NCBI GenBank assembly: GCA_944327295.1
Contig: CALVHF010000002.1
Location: 48,657 to 112,656, forward strand
Origin: an uncultured Desulfovibrio sp.
GTDB taxonomy: Bacteria > Desulfobacterota > Desulfovibrionia > Desulfovibrionales > Desulfovibrionaceae
Reading direction: 5' to 3'
DNA: 64,000 bases
Positions 25,315 through 40,591 of the stretch are shown piece by piece (the first letter of the stretch is position 1; the number at the start of each line of letters is the position of its first letter). The notes under the pieces are model-generated. The model was given only the letters and a program-made list of their open reading frames with translations. It was not told the origin of the DNA and did no database searches. The position numbers were made by a program, and so were the translations under genes.

Positions 25315-25390
<76 letters not shown>

Positions 25391-25687: not shown

Positions 25688-25763
<76 letters not shown>

Positions 25764-31563: not shown

Positions 31564-32101
31564 TTAGTTCAGGGTGGAAGGAGAGGGCCAGCATGCTGCC
31601 ACCGAGGACGGCCACAGAATGCCCGTCCAAACAGGCCAGCACCTCGACCCCTGTGCCGGCACGCTCCACCAGGGGGGCCCTGATGAAGACGGCCTCCACG
31701 CGGTCAGCAGCACTGGCACAAAAGGTGCGCACCTGCAGAAAGGTTGTGAAGCTCTCCTGCTGGCGGCCGAAGGCATTGCGGCGCACCGAGATATCCAGGA
31801 CGCCCAGGCGGGGCTGGAGGGCAAAATCGGGCAGATCGGCGGCCAGAAGTATCATGCCGGCACAGGTTGCCAGCACGGGCATGCCGCCACGGCAAAGGTC
31901 ACGCAAGGGGATAAGGAGGCCATCCTCCTGCAAAAGCGTACCCATGACCGTGCTCTCGCCTCCGGGCAACACCAGGCCCTGGATTCCCATCAGATCCCTG
32001 CGAGCGCGGATTTCGCACACCTGTGCGCCACACTGCGCAAGAGCCCTCTCATGTTCGGCAAAAGCCCCCTGCAGGGCTAAAACGCCTATGCGGACAGCCA
32101 T
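31564..32101 (-). CDS. pdxT: PLP synthase glutaminase subunit PdxT
   Basis: IGVLALQGAF, LPGGEST, ATCAGMILL, RRNAFGRQ, FIRAP and SFHPEL motifs. TAATG overlap with pdxS. Confidence 0.95.
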
Positions 32102-32982
32102 TACCAGCCCCGCTCCTGCATGCGCTGTTCCTGAGGAATGGAGCTTATTTCCAGCCCTGGCATGGCTTCGCCAAGTCCGGTGGAAACGTTTGCGAGCAGT
32201 GCATAGTCTTTGTAATGGGAGACTGCTGCCACAATGGCCCGAGCCCTTGCGGCCGGATCGGCCGACTTGAAAATTCCCGATCCCACAAAGACACCATCCA
32301 GGCCAAGTTCCATCATCAGAGCTGCATCTGCAGGCGTGGCAATGCCGCCTGCGGCAAAATTGACGACTGGCAGCCTGCCCTGCCTGCGGGTCTCCAGTAC
32401 AAGTTCCAGGGGCGCGCCAATCTCCCTGGCAAAGTTCGGCACCTCTTCCTCGGGCAGGGCACACAGTGCCTTGACGGCATCAAGAACAAGGCGGCAGTGG
32501 CGCACGGCTTCCACCACATTGCCTGTGCCAGGCTCTCCCTTGGTACGAATCATGGCCGCTCCTTCGGCGATGCGGCGCAGAGCCTCCCCCAGATTCCGGG
32601 CACCGCAGACAAAGGGCACCGTAAACTTTGCCTTGTCGATATGAAAGCGATCGTCGGCCGGAGTCAGCACTTCACTTTCATCAATGTAGTCCACACCAAG
32701 GCTTTCAAGGATACGAGCCTCGATCACGTGACCTATACGGACCTTGGCCATGACCGGTATGCTCACGGCCTTCATAATGGCCCTGACTATGGCTGGATCC
32801 GCCATGCGGGCCACGCCGCCGGCAGCCCGGATATCCGCAGGAACGCGTTCCAGTGCCATGACGGCACAGGCGCCGGCTTCCTGGGCAATGACTGCCTGTT
32901 CTGGGGTTGTCACGTCCATGATGACACCACCCTTGAGCATGCGGGCAAGACCCGACTTCACCTGAAATGTTCCCTTTTCCAT
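32101..32982 (-). CDS. pdxS: PLP synthase lyase subunit PdxS
   Basis: [54 protein letters not shown] and C-terminal MQERGW. Confidence 0.97.
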
Positions 32983-33098
32983 GCTGTTCACCTCTCTTGA
33001 TTGATCGCACGACAGGCGTGCAGGGGCTCTTTGAAGATGTTTGAAAGGTGCTGCAGTCCTACCCTGTTTTGAGCTCTGCCCCCAAGCCTTTGTCCCGT

Positions 33099-33160
33099 TC
33101 AGGTGACAATCTTTTTGGTCAGGAATACAATTTGTCTTGTCAGGGTGACAATTTGTCTGC
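33099..33160. promoter_or_regulatory. Array of three direct repeats, a putative MocR/PdxR operator
   Basis: ACAAT cores at 33106, 33127 and 33148 (21-bp spacing), each preceded by TCAGG. Unit 3 is the perfect palindrome GACAA-T-TTGTC. Confidence 0.7.
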
Positions 33161-33213
33161 CATCCAGGACTCTGGCTACCGCCTCTCTTTTGGGGTGTCA
33201 TTGAGGAACAGAC

Positions 33214-34641
33214 ATGCAGTTTGAGAAACTTCGCAGACTCTATGAGGAATATCTGCACGATCATGGCCGCCCGCCCCATTGGGAAGCCCTGGCTTCGGCC
33301 CTGGCGGACATGATCCGGGCTGGCGCTCTTGCTCCGGGCGAACGCCTGCCTACCCACAGGGAACTAGCCCAGGCCTTGCAGGTCACCGTAGGCACGGTCT
33401 CTCATGCCTATGCCAAGACAGCCCAGCTCAATCTCAGTACCGGCATTGTCGGCAGAGGCACCTTTGTGACACGCCCGGTGCAGGAGGTGGATGTCTATGC
33501 CCAGCGGCCACTGCCCAGGGCCTACACGACTGGAAGTCCCCCTGGCACCGTACATGCCTTTTCCGAAAAGAACCCGCTGGACATGGGATTCATCACGCCT
33601 TTCGAGCATCTCAACCCCCCTGTGGAAGCGGGACTGAACGCTCTACTGCACAACGGAGGCCTCAATGCCCTGAGCGGCTATCAGGCACCGCATGGGCTTT
33701 TGCGTCACCGGGAGGCCGGCGCACTGTGGGCTGCTCGTTTCGGACTTCCCCTTGCTCCGGACAATGTTCTTGTCTGTGCTGGGGCACAGCATGCCCTGCT
33801 CACAGTCTTGGCCTCGCTCTTCAGTCCAGGAGACCGCATAGCTGTCGAGCAGCTGAGCTACCCTCTTCTCAGGCAGCTTGCCCAGAAGCTGCGTTTACAG
33901 CTCATCCCCGTTCGCATGGACAAGAATGGTCTCATCCCCTCTTCCCTGGAAGCAGCCTGCAAAACCAGGAACATCAGGGGACTGTACCTGATGCCGTCCT
34001 GCCACAATCCGACCCTTTCCATGATCCCCGAGTTCAGGCGGCATGAAATTGTGGATATTTGCCGCAAACATGATGTCTGCCTCATCGAGGACGATGTCTA
34101 TGCCCTCTCTCTGGAACAGCGCCTGCCACCTCTGTCCAGGCTGGCGCCCGAGCGCAGCTGCTTCATCGCATCCACAAGCGAAACCCTGGGAGCAGGACTG
34201 CGCATTGCCTATCTCTGTGCCCCTCTGCAGTATCAGGACGCCCTTGAGCGCACCATTTCCTACACCATTTCCATGGCGCCGCCCCTGATGGCGGAACTTG
34301 CGGCCCTGTGGATAGGCGACGGGACAGCAGACACTGTTGTTGCGACCAAGCGCAGGGCAGCCAGGGAGGCCAATGTCCTGGCCCGCAAAATACTGGACGG
34401 CTTTCCCCTGGAAACCCGCACCACGGGTTTCTTCTGCTGGCTCAAGCTGCCTGATCAGGACGCCTCCCTTGAGCTGACCAGGGCTGCCAGGCAACAAGGC
34501 ATCATTGTGGCAGACACTTCCTACTTTGCCACGGGTGGTGCCGCCTCCGAGGCCGGTGTGCGCATAGCCCTGGGACTTAAGGATCAGGAAGTGCTGACCG
34601 AAGCTCTGGAATGTCTGACAAGACTTCTGCAACAGGGCTGA
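33214..34641 (+). CDS. pdxR: MocR/GabR-type PLP-dependent GntR regulator, divergent from pdxST
   Basis: N-terminal wHTH ([11 protein letters not shown]...TVGTVSHAY...GRGTFV) plus an aminotransferase-like domain (GAQHAL, HNPT, IEDDVY, GLRIAY). The symbol is assigned from context. Confidence 0.85.
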
Positions 34642-34787: not shown

Positions 34788-35927
34788 CTACCCGCCGAGC
34801 AGCTTTGATGCCCGTTGCCGCAGGGCCAATTCAATAAGCTTCAGACGCCTGGATTCAAGATTGTAGCGAGGATGCCTTTTCAGCCTGAAGTCCAGCAGAT
34901 GACGCAGTCCTTCACGATGCCGCTGCTTCACGCAGGGCTGTGCGACAGTAAAGAAGTCATCATAGCACACTGGAAACTGAAGGTCCGCATACTTGAGGAA
35001 GTCCTGTCTGCTTTCCAGCTCCTTGCGCGAGGCAAAGTTGAAGAGGGCGTTTCCGTGATCGAACAGAGGGGCAGGTCCTGCCAAGGTATTGCTCCTGGAG
35101 TGTACAAGGAAGCCAAAGTTGCCAAAATGCCTGTCAGTATTGGCTACCAGTGCATCGAAAACGAACATGTCTTCCAGTGTGTCCACATACTCCGTACCGA
35201 GAGTCCTGTAAAAATCGAGAACAGCCTGCATTCCGCCATGCTTTACAATATTCCCGACCGGAACAAAGCCCACTTCCTTGCTTGTGAACAATTCACATTT
35301 GGAACAGAGTGTCGATTTCCACCTGACAATGGTGTACGGAACCGCCTTGATGCCAAGAGTCTGGGCAACCTGCCAGGCATAAAATTCAGAATAGGGCTCA
35401 TTGCCGGTATTGGACGCGCCTTCTGTTCCCCCTTTGTACAGGTACACCCTGCCCGACTGGCGCCGCCAGCACTTGGGAAGCATGCCGTTCGTGGTGAACT
35501 CGGGGCTCGAGAGCACAGAAGCACGAACAGAACTTCCATAACCAGTAAAGGCTATGCCAGCCAGAATCTCGCTGAATCTGTTCTCGTAGAGATTGCACCG
35601 GGCAAAATCCTTGTCAAAACCTGCTCTCACGACCCAGTAGCTGTCGTTGAGAGAAAGCCCCTTGCTGACATCGATAATGCCCATGGTGGCATTGGGAGAG
35701 AGGCCGCATTGTGCCAGAAATGTGTGAATGTACGCCCTGTTCTTGGGGAGCTTCCTGTGCTTTAGCCAGCGGGCAAGACCTTTATCTGTCACTTCCATAC
35801 CCATCGGCATCAGGGGCAGGGCATCCTGCTCCACATGTGTTATGCAGACTTCGGGCGTCTCTCCATTGTCCCTGGCTGAAAAGTGAAGCAGGGCCTGGTC
35901 AAAAAGCTTCAGAATATAGTCAGCCAT
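34788..35927 (-). CDS. HipA-like (CtkA-type) Ser/Thr kinase
   Basis: TNGMLPKCW, LYKGG, EPYSEF, catalytic DALVANTDRHFGNFG and APLFDHG motifs. Confidence 0.8.
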   Translation of the reverse strand: MADYILKLFDQALLHFSARDNGETPEVCITHVEQDALPLMPMGMEVTDKGLARWLKHRKLPKNRAYIHTFLAQCGLSPNATMGIIDVSKGLSLNDSYWVVRAGFDKDFARCNLYENRFSEILAGIAFTGYGSSVRASVLSSPEFTTNGMLPKCWRRQSGRVYLYKGGTEGASNTGNEPYSEFYAWQVAQTLGIKAVPYTIVRWKSTLCSKCELFTSKEVGFVPVGNIVKHGGMQAVLDFYRTLGTEYVDTLEDMFVFDALVANTDRHFGNFGFLVHSRSNTLAGPAPLFDHGNALFNFASRKELESRQDFLKYADLQFPVCYDDFFTVAQPCVKQRHREGLRHLLDFRLKRHPRYNLESRRLKLIELALRQRASKLLGG

Positions 35928-36298: not shown

Positions 36299-36375
<77 letters not shown>

Positions 36376-36452: not shown

Positions 36453-36602
36453 CACCAACATCCTCGGATCTTGGCTCGCCAGCAGCATGTGCCGGCAGCG
36501 CTTGCCACACTATCTGTTCTTTGCGATCATCCGGCGGGCGAAGCAGAGATGGCCCATGCACTTTCCTCTTTTTCGACTGTAGGGAGACTACGGAGACGCT
36601 TC

Positions 36603-38354
36603 ATGGATACTTTGGCCCAGCATCCCGATCCGGCTGCAGCGTGCGCAGAAATCTACACCCGGATTCAGGGTATTCCCGAGCACTCGGTTTCACTGATGAC
36701 ACGAGCCAGCCATGGCCGGGCGCTACGTATCGGCGCCTATCTTTTCTATGCAGCCGGAGACTGGCTCATAGGCATAGGCTACCCCCTGCAGGGAACGCCT
36801 TCTGTCGAAGACTTTGACAGGGCTCTCGACAAGGCCATCAGCCAGACAGGGGCGACAGACTGCCGCATTGTCGCCTGCGAGCTTCCTGCACGGCTGGCCG
36901 GTCATCTCGCCAAAAAGGATGCGTACTACATCCTTCCCCTGGAGAGAGCCCTGCCAAAACGCCTCGTCAATATTGTCAACAAGGCCTCGCAGTCCTTGCG
37001 CATTGAGACAGGCACGACCTTCACGCCCCAGCACCGCCGCCTGTGGGGCGAATTCATGGGTTTTGCCGGACTCCCCAGCAATGTTCAGGTCCTGTATGCC
37101 TCCGTGGAGGAACTACTCTCAGCCCCTGACTGCGAAATTTCCCTGCTCAATGCCTATGACGGGGACGGATTTCTCACGGCCTGCCTCGTGGTGGATACCG
37201 CACTGCCGGACTTTGACACCTATCTGCTTGGCGCCCATTCGCGCCAGCACCCTGTGCCCCATGCCTCGGATGTACTCTTTGCCCGCATGATTGCAGAGGC
37301 CCGTCAGCGCAACAAGGCCTTCCTGCACCTGGGCCTTGGCGTCAATCAGGGCATAGCCCGCTTCAAGCGCAAATGGGGCGGTTTTCCCGCCCTGCCCTAT
37401 CTGGAAGCCCAGTGGAAGGAACAGAAGCGTTCCGCCTCCGTCAACGTCATTCTGCACAGCATCGAGGCCAGTCTGGATACGAGCCTGAGCGAAATGGAAC
37501 ACAGAGAACACGATCTTGCCCAGCGTCCCTTCCGCATGCTCTGGCGACTGGACAAGGACGGACGCACCTCCTGGATTGGCGGGACTGCCCACTTTTTCTG
37601 CAAGTCCTTCGAGCGCTCCTTCAAGCAGCTCTACAAAAACATTGATACGGTCCTTTTTGAAGGCCACCTGGATGATGCAAGCCTGGAAACCATCAGTCTG
37701 GTCGGCAAGCAGCCACCCACCCCTTCGGCCTGCCTCTACGATCTCTTAAGCGAAGAGGAGCGACACAGGCTTGAACGTATGGTCCGAGGGCCTGAAGGGC
37801 CACTGTTCCGTTTTCTCAACGTGGAAGCAGAGAACAAGGCCGATGTGCGCTGGTACCTGCGCCGGACACAGCACTGGTATGCCTTCTTTGCCCTGTGGTG
37901 CGCCTTTCTTGAGCGCCGGGGCTGGCGCTATTCCGTGGATCTGGAAGCCTGGCGCCTAGCCCACAGCCTGGGCAAGCACGTGCTGGCCATGGAAGACATA
38001 GAGGAACAGCTGGAGGCCCTGCGCTCTGTTCCGGTGGAGCGGGCTGTCAATCACCTGCGCAACTGCGCCCTGTGGCCTGCCTACCTCAAGGCCAATGCCC
38101 GGGCCTACCTGGCAGGGGATCTCATGGGGCTCATGGGCACAAGCACGGAATTTCCTACCCGCACAGGACACATCATAGGCACACGGGATCAGCGTTTTCG
38201 GGAGCGCATGGTGCCCTACCTGGAAGAAGGCAGGGCCCTGGCCCTGGTCGGATCGGCCCACCTGCTCAACCTGCGCAGCATGCTGGAAGAAGACGGCTTC
38301 ACGGTCACGCCCGAGAACCGCAGCCTGTGGGGCAGGATACGCCATTACGGGTAG
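36603..38354 (+). CDS. Fusion protein: N-terminal Fem-like GNAT domain + C-terminal TraB/GumN (TIKI) protease-like domain
   Basis: The N-half ends in HLGLGVNQGIARFKRKWGG. The C-half has LWRL...SWIGGTAHF, LFEG, EDIEEQLEAL, RDQRF and ALVGSAHL. Start is 36603 (GGAG RBS) or 36549. Confidence 0.75.
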   Translation: MDTLAQHPDPAAACAEIYTRIQGIPEHSVSLMTRASHGRALRIGAYLFYAAGDWLIGIGYPLQGTPSVEDFDRALDKAISQTGATDCRIVACELPARLAGHLAKKDAYYILPLERALPKRLVNIVNKASQSLRIETGTTFTPQHRRLWGEFMGFAGLPSNVQVLYASVEELLSAPDCEISLLNAYDGDGFLTACLVVDTALPDFDTYLLGAHSRQHPVPHASDVLFARMIAEARQRNKAFLHLGLGVNQGIARFKRKWGGFPALPYLEAQWKEQKRSASVNVILHSIEASLDTSLSEMEHREHDLAQRPFRMLWRLDKDGRTSWIGGTAHFFCKSFERSFKQLYKNIDTVLFEGHLDDASLETISLVGKQPPTPSACLYDLLSEEERHRLERMVRGPEGPLFRFLNVEAENKADVRWYLRRTQHWYAFFALWCAFLERRGWRYSVDLEAWRLAHSLGKHVLAMEDIEEQLEALRSVPVERAVNHLRNCALWPAYLKANARAYLAGDLMGLMGTSTEFPTRTGHIIGTRDQRFRERMVPYLEEGRALALVGSAHLLNLRSMLEEDGFTVTPENRSLWGRIRHYG

Positions 38355-38358
38355 AAGT

Positions 38359-39258
38359 ATGCAGACATTCAGTGACTTTACCTGCCGGGCTCTGGTGCCC
38401 GAGCATCTGGAACACTACGTGCGCGCCGTCAGCGCCTGCACGCCTTTGCGCATAGGCTCCTTCCTTGCCTGGCGCAATGCTTCCTCCCTCATTCTCACGG
38501 GCTTTCCGTGTGACAGCGGCCTTGGAATCTTTGCGGAAGGGTCTCCTGTACAGGAGCCGGCCAAAACCCTCCTCCTGCACTCCCTGGACGAGGCCCTGCA
38601 GGAGGCAGGCTCCCTGCCCTGGGTGGAGACCATCACCCTTCTTGCCCCTGTCCGTCCGAAGGCTGTTCCTGAAAATGCCACCTGCCATGAGGACGCCTAT
38701 TTCGGCCTGGATCTACCTCTGGGCAGGCTTGGCGGCAAGCTGAACAACATGCTGCGCAGGGGCAGGACTCTGACGGAAATTACAGTCAACGACACATGGA
38801 ACAGGGAACACGAGGCCCTGGTGGCCCAGGCCGTGCGTGTCCTTGGCAGCCGTCCAGGAGAGCAGCGCCTGCTCCCGGAGCATGCAAGGCTCTTTGCCAG
38901 ACTCGGCCACTACGTGGCGGCCAACCAAGGCAAAGTCTGCTGCTACTCGGCCAGGCGCCGGGACGATGGCCGCCTGTGCGGACTTGTGCTGGGCGATCAC
39001 GCCTCCTACACAACCTCCTTCTATCTTTTTGCCTTCCGCAGCCCCGACGCGCCGCCCGGCACGGCCGACGCCCTTCTGCACAGCCTCTGCCAACACAGTG
39101 TGGAACTAGGCCAGGTGCGCTGCAACCTGGGGCTTGGCATTCACGGGGGCATACGCTTCTTCAAGGCCAAGTGGGGCGCCTCCCTGTGGATGCCCTGTCA
39201 TGAATGTTCCTGGTCCGTCAAAAAACGGGGCTTTTGGGCCCGGTTCCTTTCACGCTAG
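38359..39258 (+). CDS. Stand-alone Fem-like GNAT-fold protein, paralogous to the N-terminal domain of the upstream gene
   Basis: Begins 4 nt after the upstream stop. VPEH, EDAYF, ADALL and NLGLGIHGGIRFFKAKWG align with the upstream IPEH, KDAYY, SDVLF and HLGLGVNQGIARFKRKWG. Confidence 0.72.
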   Translation: MQTFSDFTCRALVPEHLEHYVRAVSACTPLRIGSFLAWRNASSLILTGFPCDSGLGIFAEGSPVQEPAKTLLLHSLDEALQEAGSLPWVETITLLAPVRPKAVPENATCHEDAYFGLDLPLGRLGGKLNNMLRRGRTLTEITVNDTWNREHEALVAQAVRVLGSRPGEQRLLPEHARLFARLGHYVAANQGKVCCYSARRRDDGRLCGLVLGDHASYTTSFYLFAFRSPDAPPGTADALLHSLCQHSVELGQVRCNLGLGIHGGIRFFKAKWGASLWMPCHECSWSVKKRGFWARFLSR

Positions 39259-39395
39259 ACCCGTTGTCTGCCCCAGAAACGTGCATCAAAAAAAGAAACA
39301 TCCTTACACCAATTTTTTATGCACCAAAAAAACATATTCTGCACCAATATTCTGTTCCCTGCCCTGTTCGTTCTGTCCCTTTTGAGGAGTCCGTC

Positions 39396-40475
39396 ATGTC
39401 TTCCAGCACGCAGCCCGATCCCCTTGCCGAAGCAGCACGCAGCCTGCCCCATGGCTGGCGACGCTGGCTTGGCAGGCTGGGCGGCAGCACCAAGCGCCCC
39501 CTGAAGCACATACAGGTCGAAGTGACATCGCATTGTCCCGGAGCCTGCGAATACTGCCCCAGAGGCATTCTGCACACGGCCTGGCAGGCCCGTCACATGC
39601 GTGATGCCTGCTTTGCCGCCCTGACCCCACTCATGCTGCAGGCCGAACGTGTGCATCTGCAGGGCTGGGGCGAGCCCTTTGCCCATCCGCGGCTGCTGGA
39701 TTATGTGGCTCTTGCCCGCAAGGCAGGCTGTGCTGCCTCGACCACTTCCTGCGGACTTGTCATGACGGAAGACCTGGCCCGTCGCGTTGTGGAGAGCGGC
39801 ATGGATATCGTGGCCTTTTCCCTAGTGGGCACGGACGAGGCCAGCAATGCCCCTCGCAGGAACGTGCCCTTTGCCAGAGTGGCCAGGGCCGTGCAGCTTC
39901 TTGAACGGACGAGGCGTGCCCTGCACAGCAGCACGCCCCGCATCCATCTCTCTTACCTGCTCCTGGCGGATCGTCTGCAGGCTGCGGCTAGGCTTCCAGA
40001 ACTCATGGAGGCCTGGAATGTGGACATGTGCATCATCTCCACCCTGGACATGCCTGTGCTGGCACAGCACTGGGCCTGGGCCTATCGGCCCGAAGAAACG
40101 GAAAAGATTGCCAAGGCCAGGACCTTTCTTGAACCCCTGGCCGCTCAGGCTGCTGCCGGCGGCCGGGCCATTCACTTCTGCCTGCCCGGCAGGGTCACGG
40201 GCAACTGTCGCGAGGACATTGCCCACAGCTGCTATGTGGATGCCGACGGGCTCCTCTCGCCCTGCATCTACCTCAATGTGCCCTTTCGAGAAAACATGTT
40301 CCGTGAAGAGACCCTGCTGCGCAACCACCGCGTCGTTTACGGCTCCATTGAACAGACCAGTCCTGTCACTCTCTGGAACAGGGACGACTACATGGACTTT
40401 CGTGCCGACTTGAGCCACGGGGTGACGCCCAAGACCTGCCTCTCCTGCCCCAAGCGCTTTGAACACTTCTTCTGA
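39396..40475 (+). CDS. Radical SAM enzyme with a SPASM/Twitch auxiliary-cluster domain
   Basis: CPGACEYC (CxxxCxxC), LQGWGEPFAHP, and C-terminal NC...SCYVDADGLLSPC...CLSC. A GAGGAG RBS lies before ATG 39396. Confidence 0.9.
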   Translation: MSSSTQPDPLAEAARSLPHGWRRWLGRLGGSTKRPLKHIQVEVTSHCPGACEYCPRGILHTAWQARHMRDACFAALTPLMLQAERVHLQGWGEPFAHPRLLDYVALARKAGCAASTTSCGLVMTEDLARRVVESGMDIVAFSLVGTDEASNAPRRNVPFARVARAVQLLERTRRALHSSTPRIHLSYLLLADRLQAAARLPELMEAWNVDMCIISTLDMPVLAQHWAWAYRPEETEKIAKARTFLEPLAAQAAAGGRAIHFCLPGRVTGNCREDIAHSCYVDADGLLSPCIYLNVPFRENMFREETLLRNHRVVYGSIEQTSPVTLWNRDDYMDFRADLSHGVTPKTCLSCPKRFEHFF

Positions 40476-40506
40476 TGCCAGGACCTTCCTGGCTGAAGGC
40501 CAAAAA

Positions 40507-40539
40507 AACGATCCGGAATGCCAATTATTCCGGATCGTT
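40507..40539. terminator. Hairpin between the convergent radical SAM and apbE genes
   Basis: Perfect 13-bp inverted repeat AACGATCCGGAAT / ATTCCGGATCGTT, with an A run on the left. Confidence 0.75.
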
Positions 40540-40591
40540 CCTTTCATGCTGAACAGGGCCAGTGTTCAGTCTGTCAGGGAGGAGGAAAATA

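Follow-up and report, generated by a model that had tools for sequence, protein, structure and literature searches.

A conserved three-gene cluster of Desulfobacterota combines DUF2156-like tandem-GNAT modules, a predicted TIKI-type hydrolase and a radical SAM enzyme

Introduction

Transferases of the DUF2156 class are known to be paired with hydrolases. Bacterial MprF genes adjoin genes for aminoacyl-lipid hydrolases, and the soluble fungal DUF2156 protein ErdS is paired with ErdH (PMC7334510). Binding of tRNA by DUF2156 proteins and by FemX occurs via a positively charged helix, alpha(+), that is located between the two lobes (PMC7334510, PMC12945691). The catalytic residues are Phe304-Lys305 in FemX and Phe328-Lys329 in DhpH-C (PMC12945691). 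The TIKI superfamily, which includes the Wnt protease Tiki, the metal-independent Ras protease RRSP and the erythromycin esterases, carries a signature of two His and two Glu residues (2His/2Glu) plus a conserved basic residue; this signature defines active hydrolases, and the superfamily cuts esters as well as peptides (PMC6254334). The pearlin (peptide aminoacyl-tRNA ligase [PEARL]) pathway to 3-thiaglutamate is described as a tRNA-dependent addition of an amino acid, a modification on the scaffold and a proteolytic release (PMC9016710). Here we describe a cluster of three genes, named g1, g2 and g3, that brings together modules related to DUF2156 transferases, the TIKI superfamily and radical SAM enzymes. 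It is located in a stretch of 64,000 nucleotides (nt) from an uncultured Desulfovibrio sp. (assembly GCA_944327295.1, contig CALVHF010000002.1, positions 48,657 to 112,656); this whole stretch is referred to below as the window, and positions are counted from its first letter.

Results

Organization and conservation of the g1-g2-g3 cluster

The cluster consists of three open reading frames (ORFs), all on the + strand. The first, g1 (positions 36603 to 38354), encodes 583 amino acids from an ATG codon, with a possible alternative earlier start at a TTG codon at 36471, and is a fusion of a DUF2156/FemX-like tandem GNAT with a TraB/TIKI hydrolase domain. It is followed after 4 nt by g2 (38359 to 39258; 299 amino acids), a stand-alone DUF2156-like tandem GNAT, and after a further gap of 137 nt by g3 (39396 to 40475; 359 amino acids), a radical SAM enzyme. 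The coordinates confirmed the co-directional arrangement and both gaps given in the preliminary description of the locus. GGAG precedes g1 and GAGGAG precedes g3. None of the three proteins has a transmembrane (TM) helix or a signal peptide (maximum Kyte-Doolittle 19-residue mean, 1.21), in agreement with that description. The nearest relative of g1, from the chicken-gut metagenome-assembled genome (MAG) of Candidatus Desulfovibrio intestinipullorum, is 95 % identical.

A species scan with one genome per species revealed a g1 relative in at least 408 species. The gene neighborhoods were analyzed at the best 80 of these loci, each from another species, and genes were called by searching six-frame ORFs with the N-terminal domain of g1 (g1N), its C-terminal domain (g1C), g2 and g3. 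Enough sequence was available at 72 loci for the g1-g2 pair and at 62 loci for the g2-g3 pair. Co-occurrence across genomes had been set beforehand as the test that could refute a common system. The g2 gene was found directly after g1 at 69 of the 72 loci, and g3 directly after g2 on the same strand at 54 of the 62. In addition, natural fusions of the products were found: GNAT-TraB-GNAT proteins (g1 plus g2) are encoded at five loci and also occur as P0040, P0361 and P0368, and GNAT-radical SAM/SPASM proteins (g2 plus g3) were found in L035, L067, P0207, P0364 and P0372. Because this adjacency recurs in most of the 80 loci and is accompanied by natural fusions, the grouping of g1, g2 and g3 is a functional unit and not a product of chance. 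No other neighbor gene of at least 90 amino acids was found in more than 9 of the 80 loci.

The cluster is present in Desulfovibrio, Bilophila, Mailhella and other Desulfovibrionaceae, in Syntrophobacteraceae, Desulfobulbus, Desulfatibacillum and Desulfobacterales, and in other Thermodesulfobacteriota. A neighbor-joining tree of g1 broadly tracks taxonomy, with a Bacillota sequence nested among Desulfobacterota; therefore, the module looks old and mostly vertically inherited. In a comparison of Desulfovibrio genomes from 2013, COG3735/PF01963 was specific to host-associated as opposed to environmental genomes (PMC3608642); an absence of such genes from the model strains would be in line with this.

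This patchy distribution in Desulfovibrio (PMC3608642) would suit a conflict or defense module, i.e., a toxin-modifying or anti-phage device in a variable region beside tRNA and toxin-antitoxin genes. The flanks of the cluster are variable, a HipA-like gene and a tRNA adjoin it in the window, and VapBC and HicB adjoin it at other loci. Such a function is nevertheless very improbable. A comparison with PADLOC-DB 2.0 gave no match for g1 and g2, and for g3 a generic radical SAM likeness to pVip (33 bits). The branching of the g1 tree agrees with taxonomy, g1 proteins of different orders still share about 50 % identity, the GC content of the cluster is not lower than that of the window, and the composition of the module is invariant, unlike that of typical defense islands.

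The tandem-GNAT modules

The N-terminal domain of g1 (36603 to 37427, + strand, residues about 1 to 275) is a tandem GNAT and a paralogue of g2 according to Foldseek and hhalign. The two align over their whole length with an hhalign probability of 100 % (E 2.8e-38, 265 columns), which bears out the paralogy claimed earlier. More than 200 full-length homologues of g1 were found, with about 50 % identity. Motifs common to g1N and g2 are an N-terminal VPEH/Q, a D-x-L and the invariant LGLGxNxGIxxFKxKWG. In g1N, this motif has the invariant form LGLGVNxGIxRFKxKWG, with F254 and K255; the invariant Phe-Lys pair of g2 is F268-K269. In both paralogues the pair lies approximately 30 residues from the C terminus.

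The g2 protein of the window matched Acetyltransf_6 (PF13480) and LPG_synthase_C (PF09924) with an E value of about 0.05. Because these Pfam matches of its own are sub-threshold, the assignment of g2 to the GNATs needs evidence from the family and the fold, and the assignment of g1N likewise depends on both. Among 37 members of the g2 family, PF09924 (LPG_synthase_C, which is DUF2156) was found in 24 at E<=0.01 (best, 4.4e-8) and PF13480 in 18, and the g2 relative P0392 reached 38.8 bits for PF09924. PF13480 was also among the precomputed matches of some g1 homologues. The g2/g1N family is small; at E<=0.001 it comprises 496 representative clusters out of 1.84 billion. Fusions to an aminoacyl-tRNA synthetase, which would name the amino acid, were absent among the 150 best representatives.

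Structural evidence was obtained from AlphaFold2 (AF2) models ranked by Foldseek against the Protein Data Bank (PDB). The g2 model (predicted local distance difference test [pLDDT] value, 93.9) is globular, as is the g1 model. The best PDB matches of both models were exclusively aminoacyl-tRNA-dependent tandem GNATs (E 1e-10 to 1e-8), namely MprF C-domains (alanyl- and lysyl-phosphatidylglycerol synthases [A-PGS and L-PGS]), the DUF2156 structures 2hqy and 5vrv, FemX and the streptothricin-type enzymes Sbb17/Sba18. For g2, the top of the ranking was formed by A-PGS 4v35 (1e-10), 2hqy, MprF, L-PGS, FemX and Sbb17, and for g1N by L-PGS 4v36 (1.9e-10), DUF2156 5vrv, A-PGS, FemX and Sba18; the top hits 4v35, 4v36, 5vrv, 6lv0 and 2hqy had E values of 1e-10 to 1e-9. 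Profile searches against PDB sequences revealed no match for g1 and non-significant matches only for g2, among them a weak alignment of hidden Markov models (HMMs) to 5vrv that spans D-A-P-x-G-x-x-D-x-L...N-L-G. The helix between the two lobes of g2 (residues 126 to 138) is basic, with K127, R133, R134 and R136 and a family consensus of QKLRNMLRRAxR. The models suggest that g1N and g2 have a fold of the Fem/aminoacyl-tRNA-transferase kind, as had been proposed, and that this fold is nearer to DUF2156/MprF-C than to FemABX.

The ranking also bears on the possibility that both modules are plain acyl-CoA N-acyltransferases which modify a metabolite without tRNA, with the hydrolase and g3 acting on the same metabolite. 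The source annotation reads 'GNAT family N-acetyltransferase', PF13480 includes uncharacterized members, and significant Foldseek hits include the clavulanate tandem GNAT 2wpw, VipF and Eis. However, these acyl-CoA tandem GNATs rank later (1e-7 to 1e-5), and their E values are weaker by a factor of two to five orders of magnitude than those of all the aminoacyl-tRNA-dependent enzymes. The Pfam families Acetyltransf_1, _7 and _10 had no match in g2 or in the family members tested, and the F-K motif fits the tRNA-dependent class, as does the basic helix between the lobes. An acyl-CoA-dependent function is thus distinctly unlikely.

The TraB/TIKI domain of g1

The C-terminal domain of g1 (37536 to 38312, + strand, residues 312 to 570) belongs to the TraB/PrgY/GumN family. 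It matched PF01963 (TraB_PrgY_gumN) with 119.6 bits (E 2.8e-34; cut-off, 26.8 bits) over profile positions 1 to 263 of 263, so the TraB/GumN domain of the preliminary description is well founded. An alignment of 48 g1 homologues revealed that H330, E353, E464, H553, R520 and R528 are invariant. In the AF2 model of g1 (pLDDT 87), the four His/Glu residues are located at the C-terminal ends of predicted beta-strands. Because the complete 2His/2Glu plus Arg set is kept, the TraB domain of g1 is very probably an active hydrolase. No solved TraB structure was found among the top 50 Foldseek hits of full-length g1 because the GNAT half dominates the ranking in this search.

TraB/TIKI domains had earlier been equated with metalloproteases. 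This designation is too narrow for a superfamily that contains esterases and the metal-independent peptidase RRSP (PMC6254334). Therefore, cleavage by the g1 domain need not mean proteolysis.

The radical SAM enzyme g3

The g3 protein matched Radical_SAM (PF04055) with 38.1 bits (cut-off, 29.5) and SPASM (PF13186) with 26.7 bits (cut-off, 21.5). The CX3CX2C motif, formed by C47, C51 and C54, is conserved in 66 to 67 of 67 sequences. Four further conserved cysteines are located at the C terminus (C271-x13-G285-x4-C290 and C348-x2-C351), and C112 and C119 are extra conserved cysteines of the barrel. The protein ends 8 residues past C351, and the CX5CX3C part of a full SPASM domain is missing. 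Hence, a radical SAM enzyme with an auxiliary-cluster C terminus was correctly recognized in the preliminary description, whereas of the SPASM signature only CX13GX4C and CX2C are kept. The C terminus of g3 is predicted to be a Twitch-like or truncated SPASM domain, and a single auxiliary cluster is likeliest because the CX5CX3C part is absent. A search of the PDB with the g3 family profile revealed BtrN as the best match (6.6e-14), followed by PqqE (7e-5).

In NCBIfam, each of the 36 g3 members analyzed matched TIGR04311 and TIGR04317 best, with about 100 to 110 bits compared to cut-offs of 380 to 400. The g3 family thus appears to be a distinct, unnamed relative of the TIGR04311/TIGR04317 'maturases'. 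A role in the maturation of a tungsten or molybdenum oxidoreductase, in which g3 would act like TIGR04317, the 'tungsten cofactor oxidoreductase radical SAM maturase', had been put forward as an alternative. These best matches in 36 of 36 members favor it, as does one Bacillota locus with an AOR gene 5 kb from g1. That locus, though, lacks g2 and g3, neither an AOR nor a MoaD-like gene is a conserved neighbor in the 80 loci, and the g3 of the window reached 109.8 bits for TIGR04317, far below the equivalog cut-off of 380. This alternative is therefore highly improbable.

A protein or peptide as the substrate, also proposed in the preliminary description, would imply that the TIKI domain cleaves a target encoded elsewhere, the GNATs attach an aminoacyl or acyl group at its new terminus or at a side chain, and g3 cross-links or oxidizes it, comparable to an N-degron-type pathway or to a pathway of the cofactor or RiPP (ribosomally synthesized and posttranslationally modified peptide) type. 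Proteins or peptides are the targets of Tiki, RRSP and PrgY/TraB (PMC6254334). Peptides are frequent substrates of SPASM/Twitch enzymes, g3 has putative metalloenzyme maturases as its nearest NCBIfam families, and PqqE is the second-best solved relative of g3. GNAT-like folds are also found in aminoacyl-tRNA protein transferases. Against this, the search for a conserved short ORF within 2.5 kb of the 80 loci revealed none beyond 7 closely related genomes, so the earlier statement that no precursor peptide is evident nearby holds across these loci, and no partner gene is conserved either. Only 46 residues precede the CX3CX2C motif of g3, which begins at residue 47; since a RiPP recognition element (RRE) or PqqD-like domain comprises about 90 amino acids, g3 has no room for such an N-terminal extension. 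The best folds for the GNAT modules are transferases acting on lipids, small molecules and peptidoglycan precursors and not protein transferases. Positive evidence for a protein or peptide substrate was not obtained, and we consider protein maturation unlikely.

Boundaries and transcription signals

The preliminary description had placed the cluster between a tRNA-fMet gene and a 13-bp terminator. Both elements exist. The initiator tRNA-Met(CAU) (36299 to 36375; ARAGORN; Rfam, 64 bits) forms the upstream boundary; it lies on the - strand and is thus divergent from g1. It shows the hallmarks of an initiator, with C1 opposite A72 and three G-C pairs (GGG/CCC) closing the anticodon stem. The tRNA-Met gene is not conserved beside the cluster at other loci and is not part of the g1-g2-g3 unit. 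An Rfam search for a riboswitch or leader upstream of g1 revealed only this tRNA.

Two hairpins follow the stop codon of g3 (40476 to 40550). The larger one, which can form on both strands (40507 to 40539), has a 13-bp stem (40507 to 40519 and 40527 to 40539) with a 7-nt loop and lies between the convergent genes g3 and apbE. Its fold energy is -34.7 kcal/mol on the + strand (z -6.6) and -28.9 kcal/mol on the - strand (z -4.5). The 3' flank is CCUUUC only on the + strand and a U7 tract on the - strand, i.e., on the apbE side. Because of this U7 tract, the hairpin probably terminates the apbE-rnf operon at least as much as g3, and it may be a bidirectional terminator.

The spacer between g2 and g3 (39259 to 39395, + strand, 137 nt) is AT-rich, with 43 % GC compared to 61 % in the genes. 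The distance from the g2 stop to the g3 stop is 1217 nt in the window and mostly 1040 to 1110 nt elsewhere, where the gaps are roughly 0 to 30 nt or g2 and g3 are joined in one ORF; the AT-rich spacer is specific to the lineage of the window. It may hold an internal promoter for g3. A consensus promoter scan called none in 39259 to 39395, and the promoter/terminator scan gave nothing above the shuffled expectation, although the same scan missed the 13-bp hairpin.

Neighboring genes and variant loci

Downstream of g3, apbE and rnfB/A/E/G are encoded convergently. Upstream, a HipA_C-like kinase gene (34788 to 35927), just under the Pfam cut-off and with no obvious hipB partner, is located between a regulator gene and the tRNA-fMet gene. 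The regulator (32101 to 34641) is of the MocR/PdxR type, with a GntR helix-turn-helix and an aminotransferase domain; it is divergent and adjoins pdxS, which is the usual and ordinary PdxR-pdxS arrangement. Farther upstream, two tRNA-Ala(GGC) genes with the same Rfam score are located 300 nt apart on the minus strand (25315 to 25390 and 25688 to 25763).

Several neighbors at other loci were considered as partners of the cluster and rejected. A link to tRNA-guanine transglycosylase was dismissed, as only in Desulfonatronum (L001, 6896 to 9728) does tgt (PF01702) share sequence with the start of g1, in an overlap of 17 nt. Maf, MetY-like and AIR-synthase-like neighbors represent single-lineage synteny. 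The MetY-like gene encodes a pyridoxal phosphate (PLP) enzyme of Cys/Met metabolism. Only in a single Desulfovibrio clade (L020, L021, L025, L030, L046, L058 and L079) does it directly precede g1 in the same orientation, about 1.3 kb upstream, which is probably lineage synteny.

At several Desulfobacterales/Syntrophobacterales loci, the cluster is flanked by a gene for a protein of approximately 600 amino acids with a distant YeiH/PF03601 transporter-like domain. The gene after it encodes a member of the NF038143 ('HYxxLL') family that has a single TM helix. The respective coordinates are 7173 to 9955 in L038, 7163 to 9955 in L051, 6099 to 9044 in L044, 13991 to 16993 in L056, 1489 to 4192 and 5332 to 7612 in L063, and 10696 to 11295 in L001. 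In Desulfonatronum, the NF038143 gene lies directly 3' of g2, in the usual place of g3. Both genes are absent from the window. They may encode an accessory membrane or export component, a weak hint of membrane involvement.

Three further loci differ in their arrangement. In L086 (= L074; 11183 to 13428), which has no adjacent g3, the genes after g2 encode an Acetyltransf_1 GNAT, a second, clearer PF09924/DUF2156 protein and a metallo-beta-lactamase-fold protein, which may be an alternative tRNA-transferase/hydrolase set. An uncultured Desulfovibrio (L007, 3746 to 5158) carries an insertion of approximately 1.3 kb with a transposase-like long ORF between g2 and g3. In a Desulfovibrionaceae MAG (L083, 2992 to 6852), g1 is broken into two ORFs and so is g3, as in a decaying copy or as a result of assembly errors.

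Discussion

A tentative model of the pathway

The data are consistent with a cytoplasmic complex that aminoacylates a non-ribosomal acceptor from charged tRNA and couples this reaction to radical modification and to hydrolytic removal or release; we favor this model tentatively, at somewhat less than even confidence. In the model, g1, g2 and g3 would form one complex with four catalytic modules. The g1N and g2 modules, probably a heteromer that serves two donors or two successive transfers, would bind the acceptor end of aminoacyl-tRNA in a DUF2156/FemX-like manner and pass its aminoacyl group on to an acceptor that the locus does not encode, at a hydroxyl or an amine; this acceptor would be a lipid, a metabolite or a cofactor precursor. 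The g3 enzyme would abstract a hydrogen atom from the transferred residue or from the acceptor, and oxidation or formation of a C-C/C-X bond would follow, in which electrons would travel via one auxiliary Fe-S cluster; a BtrN-like two-electron oxidation or a cross-link would be the precedents. The TIKI domain would then hydrolyze the ester or amide of the conjugate, either for release of the product or for removal of the aminoacyl group in turnover or proofreading. Both the order of these steps and the formation of a complex are what we infer. The coupling of transferase and hydrolase would have a strong precedent in the DUF2156 class, by analogy with MprF and ErdS.

A more specific version of the model is more doubtful still. 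In that version, the cluster would encode a tRNA-dependent, non-ribosomal machine in which a lipid or small molecule serves as the scaffold for an aminoacyl or dipeptidyl conjugate that two DUF2156-like transferases assemble. The fused or associated radical SAM enzyme would convert this conjugate, and the TIKI domain would release a new amino-acid-derived lipid, cofactor or signaling molecule. This product would be characteristic of Desulfobacterota, including gut Desulfovibrio, Bilophila and Mailhella.

Several observations weigh against the model. With respect to the donor, the g2 of the window scored 13.3 bits for PF09924 (cut-off, 27.5), and the TM-scores to aminoacyl-phosphatidylglycerol synthases (aaPGS) and FemX are only 0.5 to 0.6 at 10 to 18 % identity. 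The Phe-Lys pair of g1N and g2 would match the catalytic Phe304-Lys305 of FemX by relative position, and the suggestion that aminoacyl-tRNA is the donor for both modules comes only from fold and motif. With respect to the acceptor, no candidate emerged from the gene neighborhoods of the 80 loci, and the nearest named relatives of g3 are 'metalloenzyme maturases', a hint of protein substrates. With respect to g3, the g1-g2 pair occurs without g3 within 10 kb at L045, L054, L055, L074 and L081, and one Bacillota lineage has g1 alone. At one locus a g3-like gene is located 5 kb upstream on the other strand, Desulfonatronum has a radical SAM/SPASM gene 8 kb away, and the loci without g3 revealed nothing consistent as a substitute. 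Because some genomes have g1-g2 without a nearby g3, the radical step may not always be linked and may be dispensable. Finally, the public RNA runs contain scraps of related strains only (chicken-gut metatranscriptomes) and are uninformative on operon transcription.

Carriers of the cluster include the main sulfide producers of the human and animal gut (Desulfovibrio, Bilophila and Mailhella) as well as environmental sulfate reducers. If aminoacyl-tRNA is the donor, the cluster would represent a new branch of tRNA use outside translation and the first case in which such a transferase is joined covalently with both a TIKI-type hydrolase and a radical SAM enzyme, and it would be a sign that these organisms contain a novel aminoacylated lipid, metabolite or cofactor. 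The natural GNAT-TraB-GNAT and GNAT-radical SAM fusions are ready-made constructs for biochemistry; therefore, the question is directly testable.

In agreement with the preliminary description, which knew of no characterized pathway with this gene set, full-text searches of a literature library found no paper on it, and the D. vulgaris fitness study, in its text and available supplements, makes no mention of such genes. The database labels of the homologues are generic or wrong, e.g., 'TraB/GumN family', 'GNAT family N-acetyltransferase', 'translation initiation factor IF-2' and 'radical SAM/SPASM domain-containing protein'.

Comparison with known systems

All parts of the cluster belong to known superfamilies, and the pairs of DUF2156 transferase and partner hydrolase are a known system that comes closest to it in function. 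No characterized system joins a radical SAM enzyme with two paralogous transferases, one of which carries a TIKI hydrolase in cis. The DUF2156 systems, i.e., MprF/aaPGS with aminoacyl-phosphatidylglycerol hydrolases and ErdS with ErdH, share with g1-g2 the tandem-GNAT fold, the basic helix between the lobes, the PF09924 matches seen in the g2 family and a genomic link between the transferase and a hydrolase that strips off the aminoacyl group. ErdS, like g1 and g2, is soluble without TM segments (PMC7334510). In contrast to MprF and ErdS, the g1-g2 pair comprises two paralogous transferase modules instead of one. Its hydrolase is a TIKI/TraB domain fused in cis, whereas theirs is an alpha/beta-hydrolase. 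Neither a flippase or membrane domain nor a fused aminoacyl-tRNA synthetase is present, and the cluster includes a radical SAM enzyme as an integral third member. Full-length MprF carries an N-terminal membrane flippase, for which g1 and g2, with their low hydropathy and globular models, show no equivalent. The likeness in sequence is marginal, with the g2 of the window under the Pfam cut-off.

FemX, VlmA, DhpH-C, PacB and Orf11/Sbb17/Sba18 share the double-GNAT architecture (Foldseek E 1e-9 to 1e-7), and the conserved C-terminal Phe-Lys of g1N and g2 is alike by position to Lys305 of FemX and Lys329 of DhpH-C (PMC12945691). The likeness to FemABX is one of fold (E 1e-9). In contrast to FemABX and the natural-product enzymes, g1 and g2 have no PF02388 match, no mur or fem genes are conserved nearby, and the cluster is not part of a peptidoglycan or antibiotic gene cluster; it occurs in hundreds of species, whereas theirs are sporadic biosynthetic clusters.

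The hydrolase domain resembles the TIKI/TraB/PrgY/erythromycin-esterase hydrolases (Tiki, RRSP and EreB/Bcr135) in its full-length PF01963 match and its 2His/2Glu plus Arg set and differs in being cytoplasmic, without a signal peptide or TM segment, and fused to a tandem GNAT. With the Twitch/SPASM enzymes (BtrN, PqqE, anSME and TIGR04317/TIGR04311), g3 shares the CX3CX2C motif and a Cys-rich C-terminal auxiliary-cluster domain. Unlike these enzymes, it is under every named-family cut-off, has the additional C112 and C119, and is fused to a GNAT in some species. Radical SAM systems of the RiPP type have an adjacent precursor and an RRE or PqqD-like domain, both of which are absent at the g1-g2-g3 loci. 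The pearlin enzymes are unrelated: a LanB-like PEARL, a non-heme-iron enzyme and another protease, together with a scaffold peptide gene that is absent here. What the two systems have in common is the three-activity logic of aminoacyl-tRNA ligation, oxidative modification and hydrolytic release (PMC9016710).

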